Virus record (IMG/VR): IMGVR_UViG_3300021373_003472
Coordinates: 1-53,518 of that record
Origin: a virus
Lineage: Duplodnaviria > Caudoviricetes
DNA length: 53,518 nucleotides
Reading direction: 5' to 3' (one strand)
A program made the translations under genes and the position numbers. Below the pieces are notes generated by a model that did no database searches, was not told where the DNA came from, and saw only the letters and a list, made by a program, of their open reading frames with translations. This document shows positions 1 through 47,666 of this stretch, in pieces (position 1 is the stretch's first letter; each line of letters opens with the position of its first letter).

Positions 1-185
1 TGTCTTTCTCCAAGTATGTAATTTTCACCTTGGACTAATTTGATTCTAATTCCGTCAAACATAAAACATCTAAATGGCTTATCCAAGTCTTCTATATAAG
101 TTTGTGTTTGCAAAGGAGTATCACTGTGAAAGTGGGTTTCCTTTAAATTTTGTACGTTTGTTTCTATTATTTTAAATTTTTTCAT
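1..185 (-). CDS. Partial hypothetical protein (runs off left edge)
   Basis: ATG at 185 overlaps the TAA of the upstream gene; manual translation MKKFKIIETNVQNLKETHFHSDTPLQ... stays open to base 1. Confidence 0.6.
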   Translation of the reverse strand, partial: MKKFKIIETNVQNLKETHFHSDTPLQTQTYIEDLDKPFRCFMFDGIRIKLVQGENYILGER

Positions 186-19293: not shown

Positions 19294-19310
19294 CAAAAAA
19301 TATATTTATT

Positions 19311-26270: not shown

Positions 26271-26526
26271 TTATTTTTATTTTTAAATTAGTTGTACCTT
26301 TTAATATTCGGTGTATTCTACCTTCTGCTATAAATATATGATCACCTTTTTTAACCTCAAAGGGGAGTTCGTTGTCAAATTGAACCTGCCATCCTTCTCC
26401 TTCTAAAATTTCAATATTTCTATCTTCAGCATCTTGATGCCAAACTAATTCTAGCTTATTTATATCTTTTGAGAATGTTCTTACGTTACCTTTATTACGA
26501 TAAGGTTTTATTTTGTTTTCCCCCAT
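26263..26526 (-). CDS. Cupin-like protein
   Basis: WHQDAEDR.IEILEG and IFI....IHRI cupin motifs. Confidence 0.7.
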   Translation of the reverse strand: MGENKIKPYRNKGNVRTFSKDINKLELVWHQDAEDRNIEILEGEGWQVQFDNELPFEVKKGDHIFIAEGRIHRILKGTTNLKIKING

Positions 26527-26930
26527 GATTTACCTTTTCCTTTATCTTTGCATTTTGCAGGTGTAGGTCTACATGATGGATATTTTGCCCTTTTTTCTCC
26601 TTTTTTTCTACCACAGGCTTTGTATTTCATTTTACCTGTTTTAGGATCTTTTCTACCTGTATTACAATCAACCCAACCTCCTTCTTTACCTGCAGGGCCT
26701 TGTCTTTTAAACCATGTACGTAAAGATTCTTTTTCTTTTTCACTTAGTGTTTGAACATGTTCTTTTACACCTTTCCAAATATCTCCTTTACGACATCTAA
26801 CTACAGCACCTGATTTATATGCAGATGGTTTTTCAAATTTGCGGTCAGCAATACGGAGACATCTGTCTCGTTTTTTCTTTTTTTCATTTAGAACATTATG
26901 TATTGCTTCCCTAACTCTTTCCATTACCAA
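26508..26930 (-). CDS. Basic Cys-containing hypothetical protein
   Basis: PSAYKSGAVVRCRK, GGWVDC, YPSCRP; K/R-rich. Confidence 0.7.
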   Translation of the reverse strand: MVMERVREAIHNVLNEKKKKRDRCLRIADRKFEKPSAYKSGAVVRCRKGDIWKGVKEHVQTLSEKEKESLRTWFKRQGPAGKEGGWVDCNTGRKDPKTGKMKYKACGRKKGEKRAKYPSCRPTPAKCKDKGKGKSWGKTK

Positions 26931-27535
26931 AAAGTATTCATATTAGCACCTAAACCTAATGCCGATGCATATCTAGGTAAATTGCAAGACCAATATCCTG
27001 CTTTGGTTCTATCTTTTTTATTTTTACAATTATGTCTAGCTGCAAAAGCATTTCTAGCTTCTTTATTTTTAATTTTAGCTCTTAAGCCACCCGAACCAAA
27101 TGATACTTTTTTAATTTTTTTAGTTTTAGGATCCCTTACATAAACATAATATGCTTTAGAACCACCACGTTTTGGTTTATTTAGGGGTACATCTTTACCT
27201 CTAAATTCAGCTTCTTCAATTTCATCTTCATTTAACATAGGTAAATCTAAGGGTACAGATACACCTTCATATAAACCAAATTCACCTAAATGTGTTTTAA
27301 TTAATGCTTCATCTTCTTCACATAAATCAATTACATTTCTAGAATATAATTTTCTAGCTTCTTTAATTAAAGATAAATGTTTATCTGAACCAATACGATA
27401 TACTGTTTCAAATAAAGGAATTTTTTTATCTATATGATATTGTAGACCTTCAGATAATAAAGATTTTACTTTACTTTCTGTAAGTAAAGGTCCTCTAATT
27501 TTAGTTTCACAAGTATTACATCCGCAGTTACACAT
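26924..27535 (-). CDS. Hypothetical protein with basic C-terminal module
   Basis: KKVSFG...AFAARHNC...AGYWSC; N-terminal CNCGCNTC. Confidence 0.7.
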   Translation of the reverse strand: MCNCGCNTCETKIRGPLLTESKVKSLLSEGLQYHIDKKIPLFETVYRIGSDKHLSLIKEARKLYSRNVIDLCEEDEALIKTHLGEFGLYEGVSVPLDLPMLNEDEIEEAEFRGKDVPLNKPKRGGSKAYYVYVRDPKTKKIKKVSFGSGGLRAKIKNKEARNAFAARHNCKNKKDRTKAGYWSCNLPRYASALGLGANMNTFW

Positions 27536-27536
27536 A

Positions 27537-28655
27537 TTATCTTATTATCATATTAGGGTGGGGATTATTCCATTGATAACCACTAATTGGGTTTTTAACT
27601 ATAGTTCCAAATAAACCATCATCAATTGAATCCTCTAAGTTATCAATATCTACTAATACATAATCACCTTTTTTAGAATCCATAAACAAAAAATAACCAA
27701 CATTAGTCTTCTCAGCATATGCTTCAGCATTTAACTTAGTTAATTTTATTTTCATTTCTGCAACATCTTTAAAATCAGCAGGACTGTTAAAATATTTTTT
27801 AGCTAAATCTTTATTAAAGAAAATGCTATCTAAAGCTTTTTGAACATCTTTAATTATAGTTTTTTCTTTCTCCTTTTTCTTTTTTGGATCATCCTCATTG
27901 GTTATAGCTTGATCGTAAAGATTTTTAATGGATACATTAATTATTTTATTTTGAGGATCGTTTAAAAATTCTTCTAATTCTTCTCCTTCTAAATATCTTT
28001 TTCCTAAAAATTCTAAATAATCAAAATCACTACCTCTTCCAGGTTGTTGTCCTAATCTACCTCCTGTTCCTTTTACTTCTAGATTTTTTCCATTATAATT
28101 TAAATCACCTCCACCACCTCTATTATCAATATCATTAAAGGCTAAAGCTAAAAATAATTCACCTTTACCTATAGAAGAACCAGTAGCATCAGCACCCGGT
28201 TCTATATTAATTAAATCTTGTACTAGATTAGATGATAATCCTGTAACTTTTGAAAAATTTCCTTTTTCGGGGGAATTAGAGAATGATTTGGGTTTGTAGT
28301 TTAAAAATTCTTGGACATTAGAATCTGAGATTTTATCTATTACATATTCTAGTGCTTTATCTCCTACTTTAAATGAATCAGCAGTATATCCCTTTTTTGA
28401 TAATAAATTCTTAAGATCACCTTTAAATCCTCTATTAGAAATAGATCTAATATAAGCATTTAATTCTTCGTTGCTTAATTTACTAGAACGAATTATTTTG
28501 ATAAGTTTATCTTCAAGGTTTTCTTCCTCCTCTTCTTTGATTAAGTTATTTACTATTGAAAATAACTTTTCCTTGTCTTCAGGATTATTCATATCAGGAT
28601 AACCCTTCGAAAATCTCCAACTATGTTCTTTTAATATCTTATCAAAAACATCCAT
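27537..28655 (-). CDS. Putative PD-(D/E)XK restriction-like endonuclease
   Basis: IGKGELFL...GGGDL...LEVKG active-site-like spacing. Confidence 0.55.
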   Translation of the reverse strand: MDVFDKILKEHSWRFSKGYPDMNNPEDKEKLFSIVNNLIKEEEEENLEDKLIKIIRSSKLSNEELNAYIRSISNRGFKGDLKNLLSKKGYTADSFKVGDKALEYVIDKISDSNVQEFLNYKPKSFSNSPEKGNFSKVTGLSSNLVQDLINIEPGADATGSSIGKGELFLALAFNDIDNRGGGGDLNYNGKNLEVKGTGGRLGQQPGRGSDFDYLEFLGKRYLEGEELEEFLNDPQNKIINVSIKNLYDQAITNEDDPKKKKEKEKTIIKDVQKALDSIFFNKDLAKKYFNSPADFKDVAEMKIKLTKLNAEAYAEKTNVGYFLFMDSKKGDYVLVDIDNLEDSIDDGLFGTIVKNPISGYQWNNPHPNMIIR

Positions 28656-29101
28656 TATATTTCTTCTGTGTCTTCTATTTCAGTTTCTGTTTCTATATCT
28701 TCAGCTCCTTCAACATCAGCTCCTACTCCAGTTGTTGTTTTACCCCCATAAGATAAAATCCTAGCTATAGATTCTGCTGCTCTTTCTTCTTCATCTAAAT
28801 TTAATAAATAATATTTTTTACCTTGAACTTTAGCTACCCAACTTCTATCATTATATTCTAATAAGAAATTTTCACCGTTTAAAAGGTTTACTCTAAAAGT
28901 AGAAGGACGAGGAGCAACCCAATCAATTGATTCTAAAAATTTATCAAAATCAACCGTAAGTAAATCAATGATAACTAACTTTAATTCTGGGAATTTGGTT
29001 AGTTCATCATAGGCAATAGCAGCATCTTCACCTTTGGTTTTTTCCTTATAGACTTCTTTTGCAAGTCTTTTTATTTTTTCTTTTAATTCAGAAGCTGTCA
29101 T
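28655..29101 (-). CDS. Hypothetical protein
   Basis: 148 aa ORF with acidic tail, coupled to neighbours. Confidence 0.7.
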   Translation of the reverse strand: MTASELKEKIKRLAKEVYKEKTKGEDAAIAYDELTKFPELKLVIIDLLTVDFDKFLESIDWVAPRPSTFRVNLLNGENFLLEYNDRSWVAKVQGKKYYLLNLDEEERAAESIARILSYGGKTTTGVGADVEGAEDIETETEIEDTEEI

Positions 29102-30894
29102 TATTTTTTATCTTGTTTAGCTAAATAGGCTGCAACAGCCATTTTGCGTCTTTTATCTTGGGATTTTCCTTTGAATTGTTTAGCATCTGATTTTTGGAAA
29201 TCATCTACAAAATCACCTACATCAGATTTTTTAGTAAGTTTTTCTTTTATAGCTTTTATTTCACCACCTTTATTATAGATGTTTGATGCTTTAGTTTTAC
29301 CTTCACCTTTATCATATAATACATTATAGGTAACATCACCAGTCATTTCTTTATTAACTTTAGTGATTTCACCTGGGTGTCCTAGGTATGTTACTTTATC
29401 TCCTACTTTAAATCCTTCAGCTACTTTTTTTTTACCTAATACCTCTTTAACATGTTTTTTGATTAAATGTTTTAAAGGTAATTCAAATACTGTGTCAGCA
29501 TCCATTTCAATTTTTTCTTCATCTATTGAAGATAAAGGTCTATCTTTATAAAAATCTCTTTGTGCTTTAGCTTCTCTATCTAAACCACTCATTACATGAT
29601 CAACTATATCTCTTAAACCTTCAGTTGAAATATCAACTGGGTTGTAGTTACCATCTGTCATGTAAGAATCTATTCCAACTTTACCTGTAGAGTCTTTTCT
29701 CCTCATTCCCGCTTTTGCAGCTTCTTCTTGATCAATTCTATACCCATACATTCTACTAATCATAAATTGATCAACATCTTTATCATATTGGAATATTACT
29801 ACTTGTGATGGATTTTTACTATTATCAGAGGAAACTGAATAGCCATCAAACCCAGCTTCTTTTCCATCTGGTCGGCGTTCTTCAATATGGTATCCTTTTT
29901 TAGCAAAATAATCAAATAATTGACCGCCGTCCATTTCTTCTTCTTTTAATGGTTTGTCAGTACCCATTGCTTTTGAAAGCGCATCATATGCTTTATTTAA
30001 AATACTTCTATTTTTTTCACTTTTATCTTGGTTATAATTACCTCGTGCAACCCAAATATCTCTATGAAAGGGGCTGAGTTTATTATAATCAAGTTCCTCT
30101 TCTAAAGAAGATTCCTGCATATCATGACCATAGAGTTGTTTTTGTATATTATATATTTTATCTTCAATTTTATTTAATTCATCACCATACTTATCTGCAA
30201 TTGGGCCACCTTCTGGTTCAGCTTCTTGCTCCATATCTCGCATTAATTGCTCTCTTTCATCTACTAAATTAGCTAACATATCTTTTAGAGTTTTAGCTTC
30301 ATTAGAATCAATTGCTTCATCTAACATATCATCAATTTGAGCTACTTTTTCTTCACCATCTAAATAATGTTTAGCTGAGACTAATAGATTTTTAGCGTTA
30401 ATAATTTTAGATTGCCACCAGTGTGGAAAATCCACTTCTCCACCTTGATCGTATTTATCCATCATTTCAAATAATTCAGATGAATATTTAGCTATTCTAT
30501 ATAAGTCTTTTTTAAGCATGTGAGGTTCATTGTCTTGATGACCTACATCTAAATCCTCAGTTTTAAGATCTTGTTTAATAGTTACAGGATGCATTTTGCC
30601 ACTACCTTTTGGAAATTCAAATTCTTTTTTACCTGCATCTCTAGCTGCATCTGCTGCTAAAACAAAAGGAGATGCTTCTTTGACAGCAAGAGCATCTTGG
30701 ATCATTTCTTTAAGTTTGTCTAAGTTCATATTTTCAACTTTTTTCTTAGCTTGTTTAGTGGCAATGCCATACATAACCTTTTCCGCATCCGCACCATATT
30801 TTTTAACTAGAGCACGTTTGTTTTTTAACAAACCTTTTAGAGCGATATTTTGTTGCTCTAGTTCGTTTTCGGTGAGTTTACGCTCGTTTAACAT
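29101..30894 (-). CDS. Modular K/E-rich protein (putative internal head polyprotein)
   Basis: 597 aa; includes SH3/KOW-like FKVGDKVTY...GEITKV; many L/I/V-x-E sites. Confidence 0.6.
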
Positions 30895-32881: not shown

Positions 32882-33457
32882 TTAAGTTTTTAATCCTTCT
32901 AAATATTCGACAACCTCTTTAATATTTTTATCTACTAATTCTTTATTAATTTTTCCATTCCACTTTTCAACATCACCAGCTTCAGAAACAAAAGAATTAT
33001 TTGATTCAGACATTTTTTCTTCTACCCAATTCTTAAATTCTACTATTTTATTATCAATCTCATCATTCTTAATATTGCGCTGGTATTCTTCCCACTTGCC
33101 TTGCTTTTTTAATTCAGCTTCAAAATCAATTACACAATCAAAACAAATTTTATGTATATTATAAAATTGTTTATCTACACGTTTTTTCATTACGCGTTTA
33201 CATTTTGGACAAAGTAAAGGCATAACATGTGCCTTTTTTGCTTTATCTAACTTAGTGATATTTTGTTTAATACCATCTTTGATAGTCCAAGTCCTACCAT
33301 CAGATTCCCAAATATCACCTTCTTTATAAAACTCATCTTTTTTAGAGAAACCAACACTAGAACGTGTTTTTTCACCATATTTTCCTTGAACAAGATTTCT
33401 TAATCGTTCTACATCTTGTTTTTGAAACTCTTTTTTTAAAACGTTATCTTGACTCAT
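32882..33457 (-). CDS. Hypothetical protein with CxxC...CxxC zinc site
   Basis: CPKC...CFDC. Confidence 0.7.
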   Translation of the reverse strand: MSQDNVLKKEFQKQDVERLRNLVQGKYGEKTRSSVGFSKKDEFYKEGDIWESDGRTWTIKDGIKQNITKLDKAKKAHVMPLLCPKCKRVMKKRVDKQFYNIHKICFDCVIDFEAELKKQGKWEEYQRNIKNDEIDNKIVEFKNWVEEKMSESNNSFVSEAGDVEKWNGKINKELVDKNIKEVVEYLEGLKT

Positions 33458-35529
33458 AAACCTAATTTTTGTAAATCAGAAATAACCTGATTTGCTGATT
33501 GATATAATATACCTGTTCCTCCTGCGTTATTCCAATTATCAATTATATACTGTTTGTCGTCTATAAGTATATCAAAATTGGTTAATTCTGGTTTGATTAA
33601 ATGTTTTTCTTTGGATTTTTCAAAATTTATTTTGGGTTTTGAAGGAAATACATCTCCTATATGATTTCTAATCCAAAGTCTTTTTCCTAAACGGGATTCT
33701 TTTCTAGCAGATGGGGCAGTTAACATTTCATAATCATGTTTAGATACATAATCAACTAATTCTTTAGCACCATCCATAACAGGAATACCAATCCAAAAAC
33801 GTAATTTATGTTCTACATCTATAAAATCCCAAAATTCATTTTTACCAAATTTATCTTCAAATTCTGAAGGTTCCATTCCTGATAATGATCTAAATCTTTG
33901 GTCAAAATCAGCTACAACCCCATCCATATCAAGATAAATTTTATATTTGCCTTCTTCTTCTCTTAAACGAGCTAATTCTTGTGAAAATGCTTTTATACCT
34001 AATTTATCTCCTTTTTTCCCTTCTTCTATTACAGAATTAGTCCAACTTCTAAATAAAATATTTCCAGTTTCATAAGCTTCTCTTTCAATATTTTCTAAAC
34101 GATCATCTTGATTTACATTAGTTGTACCATAATCCTCTAATCTATCTTCCATGTTTTGATGAACATGTACTAATTCATGAGCATAAGATCTTAAAATATC
34201 TTTTGGATGTCTACCATAGGTAAACAAAACTATTTTATTATTATGTGGAGTGTAGTATGCTGTGTTACCTAATAATTTCATCCCATTTTCAACTTCATCA
34301 TGTACAAATTTAACTTCAGGAGATGGTTGTAATTTTAAACCATTATCTTCCATATAAGAAGTTAATGATTCAATATAGGGACTAAAATTAAATTCTTTAG
34401 GGTCTAAAGATTCATTTAAAGTTTGTTTTGATAAATCAACTACCCATATTTTAGGATCTATTCCATTTTTAACTGAACCTGCAAGTCTGGTATTACCAGC
34501 AACTAGATCATAATCATTATTTGAGAATTTAACAGCAATTGGTGTTTCAATATTTCCAACTTTAAATGCTGATATAAATCTTTGTTTTTTAGGTTCTTCT
34601 AGACTATCAAAATCTAAATTTACATTTCCTAGCACTTTTTTAATAGAACTATAAGGAACAGATTTACCTTGTTTAGCTAATTTAACCCATTTTTCTTTCC
34701 CCATTTCTACAAATTCTGGATAACGATTAGCTTCTTCCCATTCTGCATCAAAGTTAGGATTGGTATATGTTATTTGTTTATTTTCTTCTAATCCTAAACT
34801 AACTAATTTAGTATAATACTTTGGGTCCTCAGCTAAATGTTGCAAAGCAATTACTTTAGCTTTAGCTGGGTCATCTGTATGTTCCATTTCAACTTTGATT
34901 CCCATTTTAAGTTCTTTGGGATCAACTTCTTTTTCTTTAGCTGGGGTTTGGATTTCAGCTATTTTATCTGATACTATATTATATACTTCTTGTTTTTCTT
35001 CAGGGGATAAAATATTAGGAACAAATTTTTCAAATTTTTCAAATGAAACTTTAGCAGCATTTCTAGCAGCAGTGCCTGATACCCCACCTGCTGTTACAAT
35101 GGTACGAAGTTCTAAATTTGGGTATTTAGAAATTGATTTAGTTCTGTCTTTAATATCTTTAAAATCTTCTTCATTCCCCTCTCTAGCACCTATAACCCAT
35201 AATACTTCTCTTGTAGGATGGTTTTTAGCAAAATCATATACTGCTTTAACAGGGGGTATTGAGGTAGGTTCTATTTTAACTTTAAATGGAAGATATTTTT
35301 TATAAATTTCCCATATTAATAAAGATTCTACTTGGCTAATACCATTTCTGTCTTTATTCCCTATAAAAAGAATAAGTTCATCTATTTCTGGGTTTTGTTC
35401 AAGGGCTAATTTAGCAACTTCAAAATGACCAGAAGTAGGGGGTTTGAATCCACCAGCGTATACTGCTGTGGTTTGTTTTTTTTCTTCTTCAGGTAGTAAT
35501 CCTTTTACTAATTCATTTACTAAACTCAT
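33454..35529 (-). CDS. Multidomain protein: HIGH-like nucleotidyltransferase + DUF5661-like + ParB/Srx-like + HExxH metallopeptidase + HAD 5'(3')-nucleotidase
   Basis: GGFKPPTSGH/SGTAAR; GIKVEMEHT...HLAEDPKYY; LVAGNTRL; AHELVH...EREAY; YLDMDGV...LIDD. Confidence 0.75.
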   Translation of the reverse strand: MSLVNELVKGLLPEEEKKQTTAVYAGGFKPPTSGHFEVAKLALEQNPEIDELILFIGNKDRNGISQVESLLIWEIYKKYLPFKVKIEPTSIPPVKAVYDFAKNHPTREVLWVIGAREGNEEDFKDIKDRTKSISKYPNLELRTIVTAGGVSGTAARNAAKVSFEKFEKFVPNILSPEEKQEVYNIVSDKIAEIQTPAKEKEVDPKELKMGIKVEMEHTDDPAKAKVIALQHLAEDPKYYTKLVSLGLEENKQITYTNPNFDAEWEEANRYPEFVEMGKEKWVKLAKQGKSVPYSSIKKVLGNVNLDFDSLEEPKKQRFISAFKVGNIETPIAVKFSNNDYDLVAGNTRLAGSVKNGIDPKIWVVDLSKQTLNESLDPKEFNFSPYIESLTSYMEDNGLKLQPSPEVKFVHDEVENGMKLLGNTAYYTPHNNKIVLFTYGRHPKDILRSYAHELVHVHQNMEDRLEDYGTTNVNQDDRLENIEREAYETGNILFRSWTNSVIEEGKKGDKLGIKAFSQELARLREEEGKYKIYLDMDGVVADFDQRFRSLSGMEPSEFEDKFGKNEFWDFIDVEHKLRFWIGIPVMDGAKELVDYVSKHDYEMLTAPSARKESRLGKRLWIRNHIGDVFPSKPKINFEKSKEKHLIKPELTNFDILIDDKQYIIDNWNNAGGTGILYQSANQVISDLQKLGL

Positions 35530-36329
35530 GTACGAAGAAATTTATTTATTTTTGATTGTGCCTCTTCTTTATCTAACCCATCTTTTACTATTTTTTCTAC
35601 TTCTTTGCTTTGTATTAAATTTTGGGCTAATTTATTTAATTCTGCTTTTTGTTTATCACTTCGAGCTTGTTGAGCTGGAGTTTTAGGTTTGGCATCTGTA
35701 ACTTTAAAATGGTCTAAATATTCTTTATATATGTCTTCAATTTTTTCCATTTTTTCTCCTTCTAATGTATTAGCTACTAAGGCAAAATTTTCATTACTAA
35801 ATAATTCTTTATAAGGAAAATAATTTTTAGTTACATTTACCCAAGTTCTTAATACTACAGCTGGGGATAAGCTTCTATCTTTCCCTCCTGATTTTTCAAA
35901 TCTAAAGTGGTTTTGTTTTAAAGAACGTTCTAAATCTGTATAAACATAAAGCATGAATACATCATATCCTGCTTCTTCTAATTGTTCTTTTAATTGTTGA
36001 GTATTTTTATAAGATGCAGCAGTACCATCTAATATAAAAGATTCTTTACCTGCAATTACAGTTTGAATTTGACCCTTAAATTCTTTATTAGCTGCCGCCA
36101 TAGCAACAGCAGCATCACTTCTTTGTTGAGCATTTGCTCTTTTTAAATTTAAACTAACATTAGCTTTTTTTAGTTTTTCAATAAAAAGGTTATCTACATT
36201 CATTATTTTTAAACCACTTAGGTCTAATCCATCAAGGGTATATCCTTTTCCTGCACCTGGGGCTCCAGCTAATATAATAGCTTTAGGATTACCTTGAGCT
36301 TCTCTTAATATTTGTACTAAACTTATCAT
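35526..36329 (-). CDS. Zeta-toxin-like P-loop kinase
   Basis: ILAGAPGAGKG, NVD, FILDGT, GYDVFMLYV. Confidence 0.7.
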   Translation of the reverse strand: MISLVQILREAQGNPKAIILAGAPGAGKGYTLDGLDLSGLKIMNVDNLFIEKLKKANVSLNLKRANAQQRSDAAVAMAAANKEFKGQIQTVIAGKESFILDGTAASYKNTQQLKEQLEEAGYDVFMLYVYTDLERSLKQNHFRFEKSGGKDRSLSPAVVLRTWVNVTKNYFPYKELFSNENFALVANTLEGEKMEKIEDIYKEYLDHFKVTDAKPKTPAQQARSDKQKAELNKLAQNLIQSKEVEKIVKDGLDKEEAQSKINKFLRT

Positions 36330-36862
36330 GATTTTGGTTTTCCCATCATTACTTTTCTATGCTTTTCTCCTCCGATAACTCTATCATAAGATCCATCTCC
36401 GTTCCAAACAATATCTTTCCCTTTTAATACTTTACGAACTAAAAATTCATCATCAACAGGTTCTACTCCTTTAGCAAGAAGAATATCTTTTATTTTTCCA
36501 CTAACCTCGATATAATATCCTGTTCTTTTAAGTAATTCAGCTTTATGATTAACTATTTTACTTTTTGCTTGTGGTGAATTATCATGACCCGTTGCCACAA
36601 ACTTTATACCTGATGGTTTTTGTTTTGCAACACTAACTGCATCTATTCCTGGATCTGAATCTAAATCAATAACTTCATATTCTTCATCTGGGGTTATGTC
36701 ACTTGGGGATTTATAATTAGGATGACCCCCAATAGGGGCGTATGCTGTAGAAATAAGATCAAAGATCTCATCTTCATAGTCTTTTAATTCAGAAGTGGGA
36801 ATGGGTTGCCATTGTCCTTTAGATAAGGCCATTTCCTTAACAATATCTAAAAATTTTATCAT
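36326..36862 (-). CDS. Hypothetical protein
   Basis: 178 aa with MIKFLDIVKE leader; upstream TATTTATA. Confidence 0.7.
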   Translation of the reverse strand: MIKFLDIVKEMALSKGQWQPIPTSELKDYEDEIFDLISTAYAPIGGHPNYKSPSDITPDEEYEVIDLDSDPGIDAVSVAKQKPSGIKFVATGHDNSPQAKSKIVNHKAELLKRTGYYIEVSGKIKDILLAKGVEPVDDEFLVRKVLKGKDIVWNGDGSYDRVIGGEKHRKVMMGKPKS

Positions 36863-37567: not shown

Positions 37568-38335
37568 CTACACGGTTCTCTTCACAGTAGTTTGGAAAGA
37601 AGTTGTAGCAGGTTTATGTTTTGGATTTTCTAAATCAAATATTCTTTTAACAGAATTAAATATTTCTAAATTTTCTTCTTGGGTTCTAGGAGATTCATGT
37701 AACTCCCATCCTTTGCCTTTTACCTTTTTTCCAGTTTTATCTGGTCCTCTTGATTTGGATTTTAACCATAATATACCTACCCTATTTACTTCTTTACCAA
37801 AGCATTCTTCATAACATTTAGCATAAACTGCTCCTTGTAAATCATAAACAGTTTGTAAATGGTTTGAGGTTTTAAAATCAATAACCCATAATTCATCATC
37901 AATTTCACAAATACAATCTACAGTGCCAGCTACTTTTAATTCATCTGAAAATAAGTGGGTTTCTGTTTCAACTAGAACAGGTTTATATGTTTCCCAAAAG
38001 TCAACAAAATTTAAAAACATTTTCCAAATGTCAGGATTCATTTTAGGATTACCATATTCATTTAAAAAATTCATTTCTTTACCTTCGAAGTATTCTTCTA
38101 TTAATTCGTGTACAGCTGTACCTTCCTCAGCACTTTTTTTAACAATCCAATCTGCACTATATCCTACTTTTTTAAGCCAATCTTCAAAGTGTTTACCTTT
38201 AGGATATGAATTTAAAACATAAGTTACAGATGGATAAAATTCCCCATTACGTCTATAATAACGTGAATCTGGTAGTGTTATTTGTTTGTGATCATCAGAT
38301 ATTTCTAAGATTCGGTCATATGATTTTTTGATCAT
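37568..38335 (-). CDS. PD-(D/E)XK exonuclease
   Basis: PSVTYVL, GTAVHELIE, AGTVDC, IDFKTS, Q..VYA. Confidence 0.85.
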   Translation of the reverse strand: MIKKSYDRILEISDDHKQITLPDSRYYRRNGEFYPSVTYVLNSYPKGKHFEDWLKKVGYSADWIVKKSAEEGTAVHELIEEYFEGKEMNFLNEYGNPKMNPDIWKMFLNFVDFWETYKPVLVETETHLFSDELKVAGTVDCICEIDDELWVIDFKTSNHLQTVYDLQGAVYAKCYEECFGKEVNRVGILWLKSKSRGPDKTGKKVKGKGWELHESPRTQEENLEIFNSVKRIFDLENPKHKPATTSFQTTVKRTV

Positions 38336-39304: not shown

Positions 39305-39332
39305 AAAAAGAAAGCCGACGAAAGTCGGCTTT
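39305..39332 (-). terminator. Intrinsic terminator
   Basis: AAAGCCGAC-gaaa-GTCGGCTTT stem with T tract on the minus strand. Confidence 0.8.
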
Positions 39333-40170: not shown

Positions 40171-43100
40171 TTAATTCTCTCTTCGTTCTTCAGGTTCATA
40201 ATGTTTTATGCGCTCGTGCCATATGGGGGAAGCCAATAAAACTGCTGAATTTATTTCATTATTTTTTTGTTTTAAAAATACATAAGACATCCAAGTTTGT
40301 TCAAAGGGATTATCCCATTTTGTATCAATAAAAACTTTTTGATTACCTTTTTTAGACATAATCATAGGCCAGTTAGTGTATGTAATATCTCCTGTTATAT
40401 AAGCCACTCCATCTATAGCATCAATTCTATTAAATTGGGTTCTAGGGGCGTTTGGATCAATCCCATTAGTAGGAAGTTGGTCATAATCAGGCCAATATTC
40501 TGTTCTACTCTCTTGGGGTACATTATACCAGCTAGTTTGGATATTATTATCCCAATATACTTCTGTAAAAGACATTTTTAAATAATCAAAATCTTCTTTT
40601 ACCATTATCTTATGGAGAGTGTTGTATAAATTAGGGATATACTTTCTTAATCCATTTCTACAAAATTGACCTTCATATTCTGGGGGGTTAGATGTCATAT
40701 CATCTTCAAAAAAGAAATAGTAATCTGCATCCGAGTCATGGAAATGTTCTGCTGCTGCTTGTCTTCCACCACAAATTCCTTTATTTCCTTCTAAACTTAT
40801 ATATTCAAAATTATACTCTTGTGCTATTTCTTTATTTTTATTTCTGGAATCTTCATTTGTAGAATTATCTAAAAGTATAAGTTTTGGGTTTTCTAACCAC
40901 TCAGGTACTTTTTTCATTGATTCTATAGTATGAAGTACTTGTTCTGGAAAGTTAAAGGTAAGTATGTATAGGTTAGTTTTAATTTTATTTGGATTATATT
41001 TAGGTTGAATTAATTTTTTTCTTTCTGCTGGAATAGGTTCTAATTCAATATTATCATTTCCTAAGTTAATAGCAAATTTTACAATTAAGCCATTATCATC
41101 TAACATATACCTTCTATAAGTTTCAGGTTCTTGATACGCCATTATAGTAAAAATACTTTCTTCAGTGCCCATTAATCCTCTGTTTAAAGTATTATTTAAT
41201 AAATGCCAATAGGTTCCATTTCCCTCTTGGATTGTTTCTTTAGTACCACCAAATAAACCACCTCTACAAACATATTCAACAGGACAATTAGTATATTCTT
41301 GCATAGCTTTATGTTCAAACCCATGAACTTCATCTACAGCTTTATAAGGCCAACTTAAAAATAAAAATGGATCTAAATAATTTACTATTTTACTAAACCA
41401 ATTATCGGCAAAATAACTTTCATGTACTGACATTGTTATACCTGCATCAAGCCATATAAAATATTCAGAATCAAAAGGATTCCATACAGTAGCATTGTGT
41501 AATAATGAGTACTTACTCATTACTATAGGATTATACCATTCATTTTTACATTGAGGACTTTCTTTTAACCAACCTCCTTCTCCAGTAATATTCACCCATT
41601 CAGGAGAAGTTCGTATTTTTTGGGTCAAATCCCAAAAACCACCATACATTTCTTTAACGTCAGATAATTCATAGATTTTGACAAAAGTATTTTCTTTACT
41701 TCTTTTTTCCCATACTAATTTTTCTAGTTCTGCTGGAAGGTAAAGGAAAAGATTACAATCAAGAGTCATTAATCTTTCTAAATGATCAATGTACATACTA
41801 AAATCTTTTTTATGATTTCCAATGTCCCAAAGTCCAGATACTACTGTAAGTTTATCTGATGGTTTTTGTTCTTTTATGAATTTTTTGCTAATGTAAGTAT
41901 CTTGTAAAATTAAACCATCCATTTCTGTTGTCTTATATACTTCAAAAGCATCTTTATATGTATTTAAAATAGGTTTTCCATCTACATTAAATGAAGTGTT
42001 TAGTAATACTCCTATACCTGTTTCTTCTTTAAACTTAGTTAAAAGATCATATAACCATGGATTTTGTTCTTTAGTAACTGTTTGTACCCTTGCTGTTCCA
42101 TCTATATGGGTAATAGCTTGTAATTTTTCTTTCCATTCATTTTTTACTAAAGGACAATAATTCATCCATCTAGATTCTTTATCAAAATCAAAATAAATAG
42201 AAACATCTTCTAACCTTACTACAGGGGCAAATGGACGATACCATTCTCTATTTTTTACTTTAGCATTAAGAATATCTTTCATCCTTTCTATATTAGGATT
42301 ACAAATAATACTTCTATTACCTAATGCCCTTGGTCCATGTTCTGCTCCATCTCTTACAACCCCAATTATATTCCCTTTTTGAAGATCATTAATTACTTGG
42401 GAAATATTTGAAGATACTTCAAATTTTCCTTCATATTCATATTCATTTAAATATTGTGTTAAATTAAATTTATCAAATATTTTTGGCCCTGCATATGTTA
42501 TATCTATAGATTCTGTGGGTTTAATATGATTACAAAGCATACCAACAGATAAACCACAATCAGATGGATTTGGTGAAATAAAGGTTTCTCTTAATTTCGC
42601 TAATTTAGTATTTAGTAAAATATTTAATCCTCCTCCGCCAGTAATGTGCAAAGGCAGTGTAGGATAAGCATCAAGATGTGGTTGTAAAATTTCTAGTACC
42701 TTTTTTTCTAACATATATTGGTTAGTAGCCGCAAGGTCTTTACTATCCTCTGAATTAGCTAGGTTGTTTTCATCCAATGGAATGTTTAATCTGGTTAGTA
42801 TTTCTTTAAATATACCTTCGTGATCTACTCCAGTTTCTAATTCATACCATTTTTCAAATTCATCTAACCATTCATTTCTAACTTTACCATATCCTGCTAA
42901 TCCCATTAGTTTACCAGCATATACTAAGTTTCCAATTAAGTAATTAGATTCATGTTTTAGTTCACTAACATAATGACCAACCATCCCATAACAAACTCCA
43001 TAATTAACATTTTTATTTAAAATATCTTCAGGATTCTCTCCTTTTTTATGTTTAAATATTCTAAACCATCCATCATTACCACCACCATCAAATGATAGCA

Positions 43101-43449
43101 CTAAAGCTTCATTGTGGTTTGATTGGTATAAAGAACTACAAGAATGATTTTCATGATGGTTAGTTTGGATATACTGGTTTGATTTAAATACTTCTTTTAC
43201 TAAATCTAAATCTACTACATCATAATAGCAATAATCATAAGATTCTATTCCATACTTATCTTTAAAAATATCTTTAACAGATATTAATACATCTTTACTG
43301 TTATCCACTAATGTTGGGGGGTAAAAAAATAGAGAAGCATTTTTTTTATTTACTAATCTTTCAATTTCAATAACTTCTTTTATTTTTCCATCTATTGCTA
43401 AACTAATAGAAGCATTGTGAGAACCATATATTGCTAAAACTGTGTTCAT
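40171..43449 (-). CDS. Fusion: NodU/CmcH/TobZ-type carbamoyltransferase + HtrL/YibB-like + GT-A glycosyltransferase
   Basis: HHENH, DGGG, GKLMGL, EHGPRALGNRSI, RPFAP, LLNTSFN; then TVVSGLWDI...FIWLDAG...GGLFGG...TEESI; then DNST...FFFEDD. Confidence 0.8.
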   Translation of the reverse strand: MNTVLAIYGSHNASISLAIDGKIKEVIEIERLVNKKNASLFFYPPTLVDNSKDVLISVKDIFKDKYGIESYDYCYYDVVDLDLVKEVFKSNQYIQTNHHENHSCSSLYQSNHNEALVLSFDGGGNDGWFRIFKHKKGENPEDILNKNVNYGVCYGMVGHYVSELKHESNYLIGNLVYAGKLMGLAGYGKVRNEWLDEFEKWYELETGVDHEGIFKEILTRLNIPLDENNLANSEDSKDLAATNQYMLEKKVLEILQPHLDAYPTLPLHITGGGGLNILLNTKLAKLRETFISPNPSDCGLSVGMLCNHIKPTESIDITYAGPKIFDKFNLTQYLNEYEYEGKFEVSSNISQVINDLQKGNIIGVVRDGAEHGPRALGNRSIICNPNIERMKDILNAKVKNREWYRPFAPVVRLEDVSIYFDFDKESRWMNYCPLVKNEWKEKLQAITHIDGTARVQTVTKEQNPWLYDLLTKFKEETGIGVLLNTSFNVDGKPILNTYKDAFEVYKTTEMDGLILQDTYISKKFIKEQKPSDKLTVVSGLWDIGNHKKDFSMYIDHLERLMTLDCNLFLYLPAELEKLVWEKRSKENTFVKIYELSDVKEMYGGFWDLTQKIRTSPEWVNITGEGGWLKESPQCKNEWYNPIVMSKYSLLHNATVWNPFDSEYFIWLDAGITMSVHESYFADNWFSKIVNYLDPFLFLSWPYKAVDEVHGFEHKAMQEYTNCPVEYVCRGGLFGGTKETIQEGNGTYWHLLNNTLNRGLMGTEESIFTIMAYQEPETYRRYMLDDNGLIVKFAINLGNDNIELEPIPAERKKLIQPKYNPNKIKTNLYILTFNFPEQVLHTIESMKKVPEWLENPKLILLDNSTNEDSRNKNKEIAQEYNFEYISLEGNKGICGGRQAAAEHFHDSDADYYFFFEDDMTSNPPEYEGQFCRNGLRKYIPNLYNTLHKIMVKEDFDYLKMSFTEVYWDNNIQTSWYNVPQESRTEYWPDYDQLPTNGIDPNAPRTQFNRIDAIDGVAYITGDITYTNWPMIMSKKGNQKVFIDTKWDNPFEQTWMSYVFLKQKNNEINSAVLLASPIWHERIKHYEPEERREN

Positions 43450-43452
43450 TAT

Positions 43453-45054
43453 TTATTGTGTTATATAATGGTTTTCTATTATTAAACCATCTAATTCTGT
43501 TGTTTGAAGTATTAAAAAACCATCTTTAATAGTAGATAAAATAGGTTTTCCTGCTACATTAAATGAAGTATTTAGTAATACTCCTACACCTGTTTGTTTA
43601 TCTAATTCAGATAATAATTCATATAAAAATGAATTTTGTTCTTTGGTAACTGTTTGTATCCTGGCTGTGCCATCTATATGTGTAATAGAAGGTAATTTTT
43701 CTTTCCATTCTTCTTTAACCATAGGGCAAAAATTCATCCATCTACTTTCTCCTTCCCATTCAAAATATTTAGAAACATCTTCTAGTCTTACTACAGGAGC
43801 AAACGGACGGTACCATTCTCTATTTTTTACTTTAGCATTAAGAATATCTTTCATATTTGGAATACTAGGATCACAAATAATACTTCTATTACCTAATGCC
43901 CTTGGTCCATGTTCTGATTGGTCCCTAATTACTCCTATTATTTTACCATCTTTTAAGTTTTGTACTAATTGTTCAATATTTAATTCATTTACATCATGAG
44001 TATTTAAATATTCTAAAAGAGTACCTAAGTCTAAAATCGGAATACCTTTATAAGTTATATCAATTGGTGTTTTTGGTTTTAAATATGATAATAATAACCC
44101 TACTCCAAGACCACAATCATTAGGATTTGGACCAATAAAAACTTCTTTATTAAATTCAGTTTTAATTCTAGTATTTAGTATAATATTTAAGGCACACCCC
44201 CCAGTAAGTATTATAGGCATATCTTGATATTTTTCCATATAGGGTAAAGCAACTTCTAAAAAACATTCTTCAAAAGCTTTTTGTGAAGTAGCAGCAATAT
44301 CATATGCAATTTGTCCTTTTAACCTGTTATTTCTATCAAATTTTACTCCTATATTATCACCAATAATTTTATTAATTTCTTCTTCATACTCACCAGATGC
44401 TGCATTTGCTTTATAATAATCCATAAAATAAGGAATCCAATCTTCATGTACTTCCCCAAAAGCACATAATCCCATAATTTTACCTGGGTATATTAGATTA
44501 CCATCTGTTAGTGGGATTTGTGTTATATCATCAAAAAAATCTCCAAAAGTTGCATATGGAAAACCTAAATCATAATAAATGTGATCATTTCCTAAAATAG
44601 GATTTTTAACTTTATTAACTAACATAGGTCCTTGTTCTCTATTAGCTAAATAAATATTAAATTTACCATCATCACCCCCTCCATCAAATGAAAATATTAA
44701 AGCACTTTCATATGGAGATTGATAAAAAGCTCCATTAGCATGAGACTCATGATGATTAGGATAAATAAAATTTTTAGCATTAATTTTTTTTGCTAAATTA
44801 GTTGACACTCCATTATGATGAATTACAGAACAATTAGCTATGCAGTTATCAAATTCTTTTATACCATATGTTTTTTCAATCCAATCAAGAATAAAATCTA
44901 CAAGTGTCCAAGGATGTCTGTAAGTTTTGTACTGACATATACCTGAGTTTTTTACACCTGTAATTCTTTCTGTTTCTATAACACATAAAATTTCTCCTTT
45001 ATCTTCTACTACTATAGAACCGTTATGTGAACCGTAAAATGAAATATTAGCCAT
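43453..45054 (-). CDS. NodU/CmcH/TobZ-type O-carbamoyltransferase
   Basis: HHESHA, DGGG, GKIMGL, GGCALN, GPRALGNRSI, LLNTSFN. Confidence 0.92.
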   Translation of the reverse strand: MANISFYGSHNGSIVVEDKGEILCVIETERITGVKNSGICQYKTYRHPWTLVDFILDWIEKTYGIKEFDNCIANCSVIHHNGVSTNLAKKINAKNFIYPNHHESHANGAFYQSPYESALIFSFDGGGDDGKFNIYLANREQGPMLVNKVKNPILGNDHIYYDLGFPYATFGDFFDDITQIPLTDGNLIYPGKIMGLCAFGEVHEDWIPYFMDYYKANAASGEYEEEINKIIGDNIGVKFDRNNRLKGQIAYDIAATSQKAFEECFLEVALPYMEKYQDMPIILTGGCALNIILNTRIKTEFNKEVFIGPNPNDCGLGVGLLLSYLKPKTPIDITYKGIPILDLGTLLEYLNTHDVNELNIEQLVQNLKDGKIIGVIRDQSEHGPRALGNRSIICDPSIPNMKDILNAKVKNREWYRPFAPVVRLEDVSKYFEWEGESRWMNFCPMVKEEWKEKLPSITHIDGTARIQTVTKEQNSFLYELLSELDKQTGVGVLLNTSFNVAGKPILSTIKDGFLILQTTELDGLIIENHYITQ

Positions 45055-45952
45055 CTTGATGAATAATTAAATGATAATGATCCATCATTTCTTTTACCCA
45101 TTTTTCAGGGTATGTTACTTGGTCATTAACATGTGTTCCTGTAATATTTCTTAATACGTGGCAACCTGTGTGATCAGGAAAAGGTAAATTATCTAAAACA
45201 GGGAAGCTATTACAATTTCTGCCTAAAGTATTAATCACTCTCCAATCTGTTTCTTTATCCCAAGCTACACATTTTATATCCTTTTTATGTTTATAAGCAT
45301 AATATCCTACTAAAATATCATCAGACCAATGATTATTAAATATAAATTCTTCATTTAAAAAATCATCTTCAAAAAAAGATCTTTTATAACTTACTGAATG
45401 CCAATGCCCTGTAATCATTATATTATGATCATAAAATAAAGGGAAAACATCTGGCATAGGAGCAAAAGTAAATTTCTTATTCCCTTCTTCATCAGTCCAA
45501 GTTCTTTTCTGGAGTAATCTATCACCTCTGAATGCAATTGCACTATCAGGATATTGTTCTAATTTTTTCAGATGATATTCTAACATATCAGGATGGTATA
45601 AATTATCATCATCTAATATAATTAGAGTATCATCTTTTTTATCTGTATACTGTAAAGCACCAACAATTTTAGTTGGAGGACCATAATCTTTTAATCTGTT
45701 AATTATCAAATGGTCGTATTCTTTTTTTAATTCTTCTACCCATTGTGGAATTTGAATTTCATCACCTTTATCAGTATTTTGAGGCAATCTTCCAATATTA
45801 TCTGCTAATCTTGCTGTATATTTAAAAGGTACATTATAAAGAACTTTATATTTCTTATCAGTATTTTGGGTTAAAAGAGAAACTAAATTTTGCCTTGATG
45901 ATTGTTCAAAATTCATTCTATCAGGTACGGTAGTTAAAGATATATAAATCAT
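45047..45952 (-). CDS. GT-A fold glycosyltransferase
   Basis: ISLTTVPDR, DYGPPTK, LDDD, SDDI. Confidence 0.7.
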   Translation of the reverse strand: MIYISLTTVPDRMNFEQSSRQNLVSLLTQNTDKKYKVLYNVPFKYTARLADNIGRLPQNTDKGDEIQIPQWVEELKKEYDHLIINRLKDYGPPTKIVGALQYTDKKDDTLIILDDDNLYHPDMLEYHLKKLEQYPDSAIAFRGDRLLQKRTWTDEEGNKKFTFAPMPDVFPLFYDHNIMITGHWHSVSYKRSFFEDDFLNEEFIFNNHWSDDILVGYYAYKHKKDIKCVAWDKETDWRVINTLGRNCNSFPVLDNLPFPDHTGCHVLRNITGTHVNDQVTYPEKWVKEMMDHYHLIIHQDG

Positions 45953-45956
45953 GTTT

Positions 45957-46700
45957 TTATATTAAATTTAAAAAAGATAAATCACTGTCAGGTCTAGATA
46001 AATCATTTCCTCTATCTAAAAAACTACAAGGATAATGTTTTTTATCCTCTTTAATATAAGGAACTAAATCTTTATTTACAAAAGAAAGTTCAATTACTTC
46101 AGGAAGGGAATATTGTTTTATATAATTTGTATTAGGAACAATTTCTTCATATGCAAAGTTATTAGCATAATTATTTCCATGGACATGAATTAAATAATAA
46201 TACTCATTAAGTTTATTTATACATTCAAAAAATTCTTTTTGTCTAGTAGGATCTTGAAGCCAATGAAATTCAAAAACTAACCCAGTTGTTACTTCACTAA
46301 GTTTTTGAATATCTGTATTTAGGATATATTCACATTCTGCTCCTTCTACATCAGCTTTGAATAAAACTCTATCTGTAATTCCTGATTGTTCATAATGGGA
46401 TAAAAAATTATCCATATTATCTGTTTTAAACGATGATATTCCTTCTTTGGTATAAATTATATTATTTTTATAATTTTCATCTATTTCAATTCCTTCTATA
46501 GTATGGTCATAACAAAATGCTTTATTTCCAGTTGCATCTACATATGCTTTTTCAAAAGATATATCATTTCCTACTCCATAACTAAAAAGTGAAACACTTT
46601 TTCCTATTGATTGTAAAGCCACAACATACCCCCCATCCCAAAGATTTCCAATTCTTACTTTTTGTAAAATAGGATCATAAAGTTTTAAAGAGTTTATCAT
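45957..46700 (-). CDS. FkbM-like methyltransferase
   Basis: RIG...DGGY, SYGVGNDISFE, KADVEGAE, FEFH, HVHGNN. Confidence 0.8.
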   Translation of the reverse strand: MINSLKLYDPILQKVRIGNLWDGGYVVALQSIGKSVSLFSYGVGNDISFEKAYVDATGNKAFCYDHTIEGIEIDENYKNNIIYTKEGISSFKTDNMDNFLSHYEQSGITDRVLFKADVEGAECEYILNTDIQKLSEVTTGLVFEFHWLQDPTRQKEFFECINKLNEYYYLIHVHGNNYANNFAYEEIVPNTNYIKQYSLPEVIELSFVNKDLVPYIKEDKKHYPCSFLDRGNDLSRPDSDLSFLNLI

Positions 46701-46706
46701 TTTTTT

Positions 46707-47666
46707 TTATTTTAGTTTATTTAAATTAATTAATTCTGTAAATATTTTAGTATGAGATTCTAAAGTACAATTTTCATCCCACCATTTTCTTCCGTTTTCT
46801 GATAGAAAAATTCTATAATCTTTATCTTGTTTTACTTTTTCAAAAGTTTCTATATAAGCATCCGCTAATGATTTATAATCTGAAAAATCAGGGCATGGTA
46901 CTTCTGCATAATGGTAGTTAGGGATTAATTTATTATGGTATTGTATATGTAATTTTGGTCTTACTAAAGCAGCCCCCAATCCTAAAGCCTCAAAAGTTCT
47001 ATTAGATACTTCAGCTCCACCATTAAAATCAATATGAATTGAATATTTAGATAATTCTTTAATAAAATCTCTAGGGGGAATAGCTGGGGTTAGGTTAAAT
47101 CTAGTATCATATTTTTTTATATATTCTCTAAAATTCCATATTCCTCCTCCTATAAAAATAGGCTTCTCAGGAGAAATAGTTGATCTTTTTTTATTTTGAT
47201 AATATTGAATAGCTTTATATCCTTCCCAAAACCAAGTACTATTTGTACAAGGAGTATATTTTATAAGAGGGTGAAAGGGTTCATATGTTACATCTTCATG
47301 TTGTAATCCACCACAGGCAAATAATTCTATACAATTATCTAAATCTTCCCATAAATTATCTTTTCGTATTAAATGGTTTTTATCACAATAAGATATGGCT
47401 ATATGTTTACCATTATCTGGGTTTTCTAATAAAGGAATAAATATATTATATTTGGTACAACAACAATATGTTTCTGCTTTATCTTTATTATCAATAGGTA
47501 TTATTTCTATATCAGGATACTTTTGTTGAAGGCTTCTATACAAACTAACCATTGCATAAGATAAAAAAAAGTTACTTGCTCCTATAGAGGTAGAATCTAT
47601 AGGAGTATTTTTAACATCTTCTATAGTCCATCTTGCAGGTAGGGGTAAGTAAAAATTGATTTTCAT
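46707..47666 (-). CDS. Glycosyltransferase-like protein (GT-B C-terminal/CgeB-like)
   Basis: NRTFEALGLGA, LIPNYHY, LSENGRKWW; operon context. Confidence 0.55.
   Translation of the reverse strand: MKINFYLPLPARWTIEDVKNTPIDSTSIGASNFFLSYAMVSLYRSLQQKYPDIEIIPIDNKDKAETYCCCTKYNIFIPLLENPDNGKHIAISYCDKNHLIRKDNLWEDLDNCIELFACGGLQHEDVTYEPFHPLIKYTPCTNSTWFWEGYKAIQYYQNKKRSTISPEKPIFIGGGIWNFREYIKKYDTRFNLTPAIPPRDFIKELSKYSIHIDFNGGAEVSNRTFEALGLGAALVRPKLHIQYHNKLIPNYHYAEVPCPDFSDYKSLADAYIETFEKVKQDKDYRIFLSENGRKWWDENCTLESHTKIFTELINLNKLK

Follow-up and report, generated by a model that had tools for sequence, protein, structure and literature searches.

The open reading frame (ORF) at 33454..35529 on the minus strand of IMG/VR virus record IMGVR_UViG_3300021373_003472, the genome record of a T4-like myophage from the ocean, probably encodes a capsid-targeted cargo polyprotein that is cut apart by the phage's own prohead protease, a reading drawn from sequence comparison. 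The window analysed is the whole of that record (53,518 nucleotides), a 53.5-kb fragment of about 30% G+C in which nearly all genes lie on the minus strand. A 14-residue leader, functionally like the capsid-targeting sequence of T4, would carry the 691-residue chain into the assembling prohead core, where a Peptidase_S77 enzyme would cut after Glu at exposed [L/I]-x-E joints (residues 14, 192, 249, 373, 503 and 524). Five small proteins would be freed, namely a nucleotidyltransferase of the PPAT/NMNAT fold, a DUF5661 protein, a ParB/Srx-like protein, a zincin peptidase and an HAD nucleotidase, and these would remain inside the head until they pass, along with the DNA, into the next host. The analysis establishes the joints, with their exposure in structural models and their conservation through module shuffling, the gene for the protease, and the leader on both fused and stand-alone forms.

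The polyprotein, its joints and their shuffling

The initial annotation had read five domains from this ORF, and all five calls hold in Pfam, PHROG, Foldseek and VIA searches, with unequal strength and with the ParB/Srx call as the weakest. Structures were modelled with AlphaFold, once for the full chain with 22 colinear homologues (model 1; mean predicted local distance difference test score, pLDDT, 75.1) and once for residues 250-503 (mean pLDDT 85.2). Pfam searches with the whole ORF give sub-threshold hints of NT5C, a cytidylyltransferase and a zinc peptidase, and a profile of the family finds only weak matches among solved structures, to PPAT (0.0025) and to a mitochondrial 5'-nucleotidase (0.011).

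In the model, the fold of the nucleotidyltransferase (residues ~15-190) is nearest to PPAT and NaMNAT, with Foldseek matches to PPAT 5ts2 (E 4.3e-7; template modelling score for the target 0.69-0.81) and NaMNAT 8aih (1.6e-6). The Pfam match to CTP_transf_like stays below cut-off (E 0.081), and NCBIfam yields sub-threshold adenylyltransferase matches only. The signature of the HIGH superfamily is present in the form of T32-S-G34-H35, a second motif S151-G152-T153-A-A155-R156 and a Rossmann-like fold, and the homologue alignment leaves G26-G27-F28-K29-P30-P31-T32, G34-H35, S151-G152-T153 and A155-R156 invariant. The second module matches PF18905 over residues 189-243 (E 1.5e-10, 41.7 bits vs a cut-off of 27); a literature search found no paper mentioning DUF5661. 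Matches of the ParB/sulfiredoxin-like module are weak, to ParB 6sdk (E 5.9e-3, probability 0.66) and Noc 7ng0 (7.9e-3) by Foldseek, and to sulfiredoxin 6ky4 (Z 5.8, root-mean-square deviation 3.4, 77 residues aligned) and the ParB-fold protein Osa 4ovb (Z 5.4) by VIA. Pfam ParB_N matches homologues only, for example P0081 at 4.2e-9, and the conserved G-N-T-R stretch may correspond to the Arg-containing nucleotide-binding motif of ParB. A Foldseek search with the model that covers the ParB-like module and the zincin gave no match at E<=1e-3, its list including ParB, Noc, PadC, sulfiredoxin, IrrE and ArdC.

The fourth module has the HExxH motif, downstream Glu and fold of a zincin, and nearly all of its best 50 VIA matches are zinc peptidases, among them lugdulysin 7bb8 (Z 8.0, root-mean-square deviation 4.3, 112 residues aligned), 8sln PprI and 6mdx (SPRTN), both at Z 7.7, and 5xbn Wss1 (Z 7.6). 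Residues H451, E452, H455, E482 and E484 are invariant in the alignment, the choice of the third-ligand residue being assumed. The HAD module (residues 528-689) matches phrog_2643, 5'-3' deoxyribonucleotidase, at 2.4e-21 and the deoxyribonucleotidases 3bwv (6.3e-6) and 2i7d (2.5e-5) by Foldseek; D534-M-D536-G-V538 is invariant and fits the DxDxV/T pattern, and the Pfam NT5C score of 16 bits lies below its cut-off of 24.8. The linker that precedes this module forms a helix (512-523) within a low-confidence stretch (486-526). Its conserved K-D-P-F-G ... L-x-E pattern recurs in the homologue P0178 (~243-264) before a different module; the linker behaves as a small movable module, perhaps a second helix for targeting or docking inside the chain.

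The junction tripeptides are where the initial annotation put them: LPE at residues 12-14, IAE at 190-192, LEE at 247-249, LNE at 371-373, IEE at 501-503 and LRE at 522-524, the Glu codons of the last five ending at nucleotides 34954, 34783, 34411, 34021 and 33958. All fit the (I/L)-x-E that it had ascribed to T4 gp21, for which a specificity of L/I-X-E with cutting after Glu is published (PMC9026906, cited here, like the papers below, from parts of its text); an LPE within an exposed disordered loop is likewise cut by gp21 (2026 preprint PMC12991175). In model 1, the segments with pLDDT<50 are 1-3, 9-15, 191-250, 370-374, 418-421 and 486-526, which together make up 17% of the chain and contain all six junction glutamates; the low values of the DUF5661 block are owed to a shallow alignment. 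The leader is a helix at 2-9 that passes into the low-confidence stretch 9-15, and in the second model residues 370-374, with the LNE joint, are the sole segment with pLDDT<50. IAE is partly exceptional in standing at the end of a helix (176-190). Four further [LI]xE tripeptides lie inside domains (49-51, 72-74, 232-234 and 310-312), three of them in well-folded parts. The models thus place the junction motifs, as predicted structures, in exposed and disordered linkers.

Homologues are abundant. A word-indexed search with the ORF returned 2218 relatives, and an exhaustive search returned 9091 cluster representatives at E<=0.001, with 477 distinct 50%-identity clusters at E<=1e-30. When the query is compared by BLAST with the first 120 homologues, the aligned blocks break at residues 192, 249-252, 371-375/386 and 500-506, with peaks at 192 (50 ends of high-scoring segment pairs), 250, 375 and 502. 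Precise domain swapping at the joints, which the initial annotation had raised as a check, is what the homologues present, modules being deleted, inserted and permuted at these sites. Among 268 homologues, the nucleotidyltransferase occurs in 259, the zincin in 258, the HAD module in 181, the ParB module in 54 and DUF5661 in 41; DUF5661 stands on either side of the zincin, the ParB module precedes the zincin in 23 and follows it in 29, and just three share the five-module order of the query. Inserted modules include a zinc ribbon, GNAT, DUF6934, an Fe/Mn superoxide dismutase, a Zeta-type kinase, a poly(A)-polymerase head domain and a weak match to ART-PolyVal, and relatives reach 1547 amino acids.

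The breakpoints carry the motif. For alignments of >=75% identity whose ends are internal to both partners, 298 of 1822 ends coincide exactly with the Glu of an [LI]xE (26 at random), and 299 of 1419 starts coincide exactly with its Leu or Ile (21 at random). A test free of any presumed pattern, in which 400 a-x-b patterns were ranked over 1084 distinct breakpoint contexts, put L-x-E first (124 vs 9.2 expected), I-x-E second (55 vs 6.7) and V-x-E third (38 vs 4.5), and the motif spans more than ten unrelated module families. The 724 other genes of the same 45 loci gave no L-x-E, no I-x-E and one V-x-E in only 56 contexts, a small control; a control with the mosaic tail-fibre-like proteins (185..3253) was dropped, there being only 15, mostly colinear, homologues. 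A cruder junction test (514 of 1356 vs 95 at random), blurred by noise in BLAST ends and by Lys-rich low-complexity matches, is superseded by the high-identity and pattern-free analyses, as is the insert test given below.

Of 235 homologues, 203 have Glu at P1 of the joint aligned with residue 192 and 196 have Ile, Val or Leu at its P3, with 16 different residues at P2. Because P2 is free and P3 interchanges while P1 is kept, selection acts on the peptide and not on DNA microhomology. The positions aligned with LPE (12-14) and LRE (522-524) hold [LI]xE in 166 of 194 and 138 of 191 homologues, respectively. Since three independent lines agree, namely structure, homology and pattern-free statistics, the comparisons argue strongly that the six positions are genuine module joints, kept across homologues and matching the specificity of a prohead protease of T4 type.

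Leaders, head genes and the prohead protease

A survey of leaders covered 45 related viral-contig loci, in which the genes that adjoin the polyprotein gene have homologues among the internal modules of other polyproteins. In 51 of 59 distinct stand-alone N-termini, [LI]xE lies just ahead of the start of homology, where the polyprotein has its joint. The leader is found on all 29 Zeta-type kinases, all eight stand-alone HAD proteins, all five DUF5872 proteins, seven of the eight members of a 181-amino-acid family, and several families of small proteins; elsewhere it is rare (primase 2/23, terminase 0/4, thymidylate kinase 0/4, hydrolase 0/7). In the kinase leader of about ten residues, position 4 is Leu in 24 of 27, position 7 Leu, Ile or Val in 27 of 27, position 8 Leu or Ile in 26 of 27 and position 10 Glu in 24 of 27. 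The first ten residues of T4 ipII and ipIII form a peptide that ends in IAE and has Tyr4, Phe7, Ile8 and Glu10 (T4 record), and residues 4 and 7 of the T4 capsid-targeting sequence serve targeting, 8 and 10 processing (PMC9026906). The kinase leader matches the T4 capsid-targeting sequence in geometry, and the comparisons strongly back a resemblance of the polyprotein's N-terminal leader to such a sequence. As a cleavable leader on a single-domain enzyme has no obvious use apart from targeting, it is evidence for packaging beyond cutting.

Neighbouring genes of the window show the same exchange between free and fused forms (Table 1). The kinase next to the polyprotein gene is related to residues 1132-1389 of P0178 (E 3e-31), where IKE precedes the module. 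Its own neighbour is related to P0126 194-362 (4e-19) and P0133 383-552, in which it is a fused module, and [LI]xE is found in 7 of 8 N-termini of its family. The head-module gene 17877..18443 likewise matches a module of P0178 (pairwise BLASTP E 4e-10, 27% identity over 102 residues), and this module is also part of a 707-amino-acid second polyprotein of locus L025. The HAD protein has a gene of its own in Flavobacterium phage vB_FspM_immuto, the nearest relative in culture, and in eight distinct viral-contig loci, an N-terminal leader replacing the linker; the immuto leader ends in LLE where the query has the LRE of its linker. The same cluster occurs in Pelagibacter phage HTVC008M, where gp127, gp129 and gp130 have leaders.

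The protease that the initial annotation named as partner, 16145..16750, is indeed of the gp21 type, matching PF03420 Peptidase_S77 at 7.2e-29 (101.1 bits vs a cut-off of 27) and phrog_207, head maturation protease, at 2.8e-60. LLIE near the N-terminus, H76, S129 and S130 are all invariant between it and T4 gp21, and we take H76, S129 and S130 to be its catalytic residues. The protease occurs in three of five polyprotein-bearing records, among them the only complete one. The major head protein is 57.9% identical to the capsid protein of immuto, and PHROG scans also place a portal, large terminase, PhoH, primase and exonuclease in the window. Six consecutive head genes between 13184 and 18443, encoding capsid, scaffold, protease and three core proteins, have [LI]xE at residues 6-14, and T4 gp67, gp68, gp21, gp22 and gp24 likewise open with it (T4 record); over the window, 15 of 57 ORFs have such an early motif vs 6.5 expected (P = 0.0014). 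The head-core gene 18427-19296 holds 17 [LI]xE vs 4.9 expected (z 6.4), spaced about 15 residues apart, and looks like a prohead core protein built for chopping into small peptides, comparable with T4 gp22, gp67 and gp68. The core-type gene 16743-17630 holds ten vs 5.1 expected.

Elsewhere in the window, minus-strand genes of unknown function at 26508..30894 have N-terminal [LI]xE leaders (27537, 28655, 29101) or motif-rich N-terminal halves joined to small basic domains, and are probably further head-internal cargo; 26924-27535 has nine [LI]xE vs 2.5 expected, 26508-26930 is a DUF5872 gene, and the 707-amino-acid protein of L025 fuses the modules of 29101-30894, 17877-18443 and 28655-29101. 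Two large structural-type proteins on the minus strand, 185..3253 and 3512..5086, have their first ~17 residues in common, ending in [L]xE, and then diverge.

Table 1. Polyprotein segments and associated genes in the window
Feature	Coordinates	Strand	Evidence or remark
N-terminal leader, residues 1-14, ends LPE, candidate capsid-targeting propeptide	35488..35529	(-)	
Module 1, residues 15-192, HIGH-motif (T-x-G-H) nucleotidyltransferase, PPAT/NaMNAT fold, ends IAE	34954..35487	(-)	
Module 2, residues 193-249, DUF5661, ends LEE	34783..34953	(-)	PF18905
Module 3, residues 250-373, ParB/sulfiredoxin-like domain, ends LNE	34411..34782	(-)	Weak fold matches
Module 4, residues 374-503, HExxH zincin metallopeptidase, ends IEE	34021..34410	(-)	
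Linker peptide, residues 504-524, conserved ~20-residue helix preceding HAD, ends LRE	33958..34020	(-)	
Module 5, residues 525-691 and stop, HAD 5'(3')-deoxyribonucleotidase-like, DMDGV motif	33454..33957	(-)	
Zeta_toxin-like P-loop kinase, upstream neighbour, 10-residue leader ending LRE	35526..36329	(-)	PF06414 1e-16
Second upstream neighbour, 178 amino acids, no recognised fold, 10-residue leader ending VKE	36326..36862	(-)	
T4-type major head protein	13184..14812		PHROG 1.9e-67
Prohead protease, T4 gp21 family, proposed cutter	16145..16750	(-)	PF03420 Peptidase_S77, phrog_207
Head-module gene between portal and protease, leader ending LKE	17877..18443	(-)	
Motif-rich core-type gene, 289 amino acids	18427..19296	(-)	Adjoins portal gene

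Weighing the alternatives

Targeting, cleavage, retention in the virion, injection and the role of the enzymes in the host are what we infer for the cargo polyprotein, and a number of observations weigh against this account. The literature search found no proteomic or biochemical data on these proteins or this phage group. Two of the five polyprotein-bearing records are without an S77 match, both being fragments (65% and 39% complete), and an attempt to locate the capsid protein's own cleavage site by alignment with T4 gp23 failed, the N-termini aligning too poorly. By a crude mapping, the position of LEE249 holds [LI]xE in just 45 of 127 homologues and that of IEE503 in 127 of 236; some joints have Val, Thr or Met at P3 or lack the motif altogether (a P0083-type module). 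In the insert test, the weaker one, 147 inserts had the motif on the left in 63, on the right in 62 and on both sides in 28, with random means of 20.1 and 22.0. Four of 20 polyprotein N-termini of one cluster lack the leader, as does immuto gp088, and 18 of the 22 distinct N-termini of the exonuclease family have ILE at residues 9-11. This last exception is unexplained; the tripeptide is either a structural part of the enzyme or the mark of a replication-type enzyme that is also a protease substrate. The exonuclease of the window, of PD-(D/E)XK type, lies at 37568..38335 on the minus strand.

The gene neighbourhood also counts on that side. The polyprotein gene, which overlaps its neighbours by four bases, lies in a tight co-oriented run with primase and exonuclease genes, downstream of a hairpin at 39311..39332 that is terminator-like and bidirectional, has nine pairs and stands directly upstream of the primase gene. 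The transcription unit with the polyprotein gene may begin at this hairpin, and because of the position in the primase/exonuclease run, early or middle expression may be possible. The window has no excess of the T4 late-promoter word (19 vs 17.6), and a sigma-70-type promoter scan gave fewer sites than shuffles. The counter-evidence from the neighbourhood is weak, since in T4, too, ipII and ipIII are remote from the head genes. Primase and exonuclease flank the gene on one side and leader-bearing genes of unrecognised type on the other, without a MuF or portal fusion. The minus-strand block 40171..51359 has two carbamoyltransferase-like genes (1092 and 533 amino acids), a nucleotide-sugar epimerase and two glycosyltransferases, which points to a pathway that modifies DNA or a surface polymer with sugar or carbamoyl groups.

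One alternative is that the chain stays uncut as a multi-domain enzyme, with [L/I/V]-x-E as a structural end-cap or a by-product of recombination. It draws on the number of motifs in the ORF, 10 [LI]xE vs 10.5 expected by composition (shuffle z -0.2), on which overall enrichment was rejected, and on the many polyvalent proteins that are transferred uncleaved, such as N4 vRNAP and ArdC (PMC5512222). As composition alone predicts 10.5, the count is uninformative by itself. The initial annotation's statement that a motif stands at every joint is thus borne out for placement, which is beyond chance, and not for number, which is at chance level, six having been picked out of ten. An uncut chain is nonetheless unlikely, for the motif leads 400 patterns at breakpoints that span over ten unrelated families of modules, it is found within disordered linkers and not at helix ends (IAE, with its helix 176-190, partly excepted), the free P2 and the interchange of Leu, Ile and Val leave no nucleotide microhomology to drive recombination, and control genes of the same loci do not have it at their breakpoints.

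Rather unlikely too is that the prohead protease cuts the chain in the cytoplasm, with no packaging, so that equimolar enzymes are released late and act in the producing cell. The conserved, 10-residue leader on single-domain forms, so like the T4 targeting sequence, would then go unexplained, as would the module common to the head-module gene and the polyproteins. It speaks for cytoplasmic cutting that a host protein of the cytosol is cleaved by T4 gp21 at an exposed I/LxE loop, both in vivo and in vitro (PMC12991175), that the gene adjoins replication genes and not head genes, and that nucleotidyltransferase and nucleotidase types suit nucleotide metabolism in replication. Least probable is cutting in cis or trans by the embedded HExxH zincin with the prohead protease uninvolved: such autoproteolysis has been predicted (Iyer 2017, PMC5512222), the module occurs in 258 of 268 homologues with invariant metal-binding residues, and its fold resembles the ArdC, IrrE/PprI and Wss1/SPRTN peptidases, but the joint motif is the published specificity of the S77 protease, for which the phage has a gene, the N-termini of the phage's capsid, scaffold, protease and core proteins, classical S77 substrates in T4, carry this motif as well, and proteins with leader or joints exist without a zincin (the stand-alone kinase and HAD protein, and second polyproteins of 418 amino acids in L044 and 707 in L025). 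The co-occurrence of the zincin is moreover inflated, the sample having been seeded with a zincin-containing query.

Relation to known systems and significance

The capsid-cargo polyprotein has its closest mechanistic counterparts in T4 itself. IPI, IPII, IPIII and Alt depend on the same protease family, Peptidase_S77, and the same L/I-x-E cut motif (PMC9026906), and the IPs have the same short propeptide geometry, with hydrophobic residues at 4 and 7, Leu or Ile at 8 and Glu at 10 (PMC9026906). The T4 cargo includes an enzyme (Alt), and some T4 cargo genes, too, are distant from the cluster of head genes. Judged by its sequence, the ORF has the propeptide of T4-type cargo, about 10-19 residues ending in L/I-x-E. 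In contrast, the T4 cargo consists of single proteins that lose only terminal propeptides and whose packaging is demonstrated, whereas the proteins described here are known from their sequences, and up to five unrelated enzyme modules (many more in relatives) are chained with a cut motif per joint and shuffled between phages. The ORF has no Pfam or PHROG match to T4 IPI, IPII, IPIII or Alt; as sequence homology is absent from these scans, the likeness to the IPs is one of mechanism and not of descent.

In architecture the chain resembles the polyvalent proteins (Iyer, Burroughs, Anand, de Souza and Aravind 2017, PMC5512222), which likewise join many unrelated effector-type domains in one chain; with five modules of five folds, it lies within their range of 2-15 such domains. 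Hub domains of polyvalent proteins recur, the zincin and the ParB-like domain in the query, and GNAT, a Zeta-type kinase and a weak ART-PolyVal match in relatives (PMC5512222), and delivery with the DNA is predicted for them as it is proposed here (PMC5512222). They differ in that release is ascribed to an embedded peptidase, with no mention of prohead-protease sites at joints in the parts of PMC5512222 drawn on, and in that the phage examples given there are anchored on MuF or portal fusions and not on a targeting leader. The core of nucleotidyltransferase, zincin and HAD was not found in main-text passages of PMC5512222.

Two further systems bear comparison. In the giant phages phiKZ and SPN3US, a diverged homologue of gp21 cuts many head-internal proteins after the Glu of a tripeptide motif, and these proteins are ejected into the host (PMC9026906, PMC10052503); the motif has a small P3 residue, as in ASE, ATE and AQE, and 13 of the 14 mapped SPN3US sites remove N-terminal propeptides and do not separate the enzymes of a polyprotein (PMC10052503). 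In cyanophage P-SS2, gp030 (L054:2214-6713, 1499 amino acids), encoded beside the portal gene, fuses a Zeta_toxin-type kinase, to which the window kinase 35526..36329 is 31% identical (E 3e-7), with a Phage_Mu_F head domain; the same enzyme class is there tied to the capsid of a different phage type by a folded head-protein domain and not by a cleavable leader. The initial annotation's proposal of an undescribed system was therefore overstated with regard to the parts, T4 targeting with gp21 and polyvalent proteins both being known, and stands with regard to the combination, which was not found in print: the literature search, with Iyer 2017 represented by parts of its main text, found no description of protease-jointed cargo polyproteins or of a leader shared with stand-alone paralogues. 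The account that we favour joins a T4-like mechanism, capsid targeting and gp21 processing, to an architecture like that of polyvalent proteins.

It is quite possible, if slightly less likely than not, that T4-like phages of the sea share a general plug-in system for cargo, in which a 10-residue tag or [L/I/V]-x-E joints would load any small enzyme and the head protease would dispense a cocktail that is injected with the DNA. This cocktail would comprise nucleotidyltransferase, nucleotidase, kinase, peptidase and ParB-like proteins, with ART-like, GNAT and superoxide dismutase proteins in relatives. Phage pathways that rebuild NAD are known counter-defences, according to parts of the published accounts; an anti-defence role for the enzymes considered here is speculation.

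If the joints are cut in the head, they would represent a second mode of capsid cargo, whereby T4-type phages package multi-enzyme polyproteins that are dispensed by the maturation protease. The leader together with [L/I/V]-x-E joints is a possible sequence rule for reading injected cargo from metagenomic phage genomes, and cultured relatives, Flavobacterium phage immuto and Pelagibacter phage HTVC008M, make the reading testable. The family is large and intensely shuffled, as expected for proteins of an arms race, and should the plug-in system prove true, its thousands of shuffled variants would form a large and as yet unexplored collection of effectors that are injected for host takeover and anti-defence.

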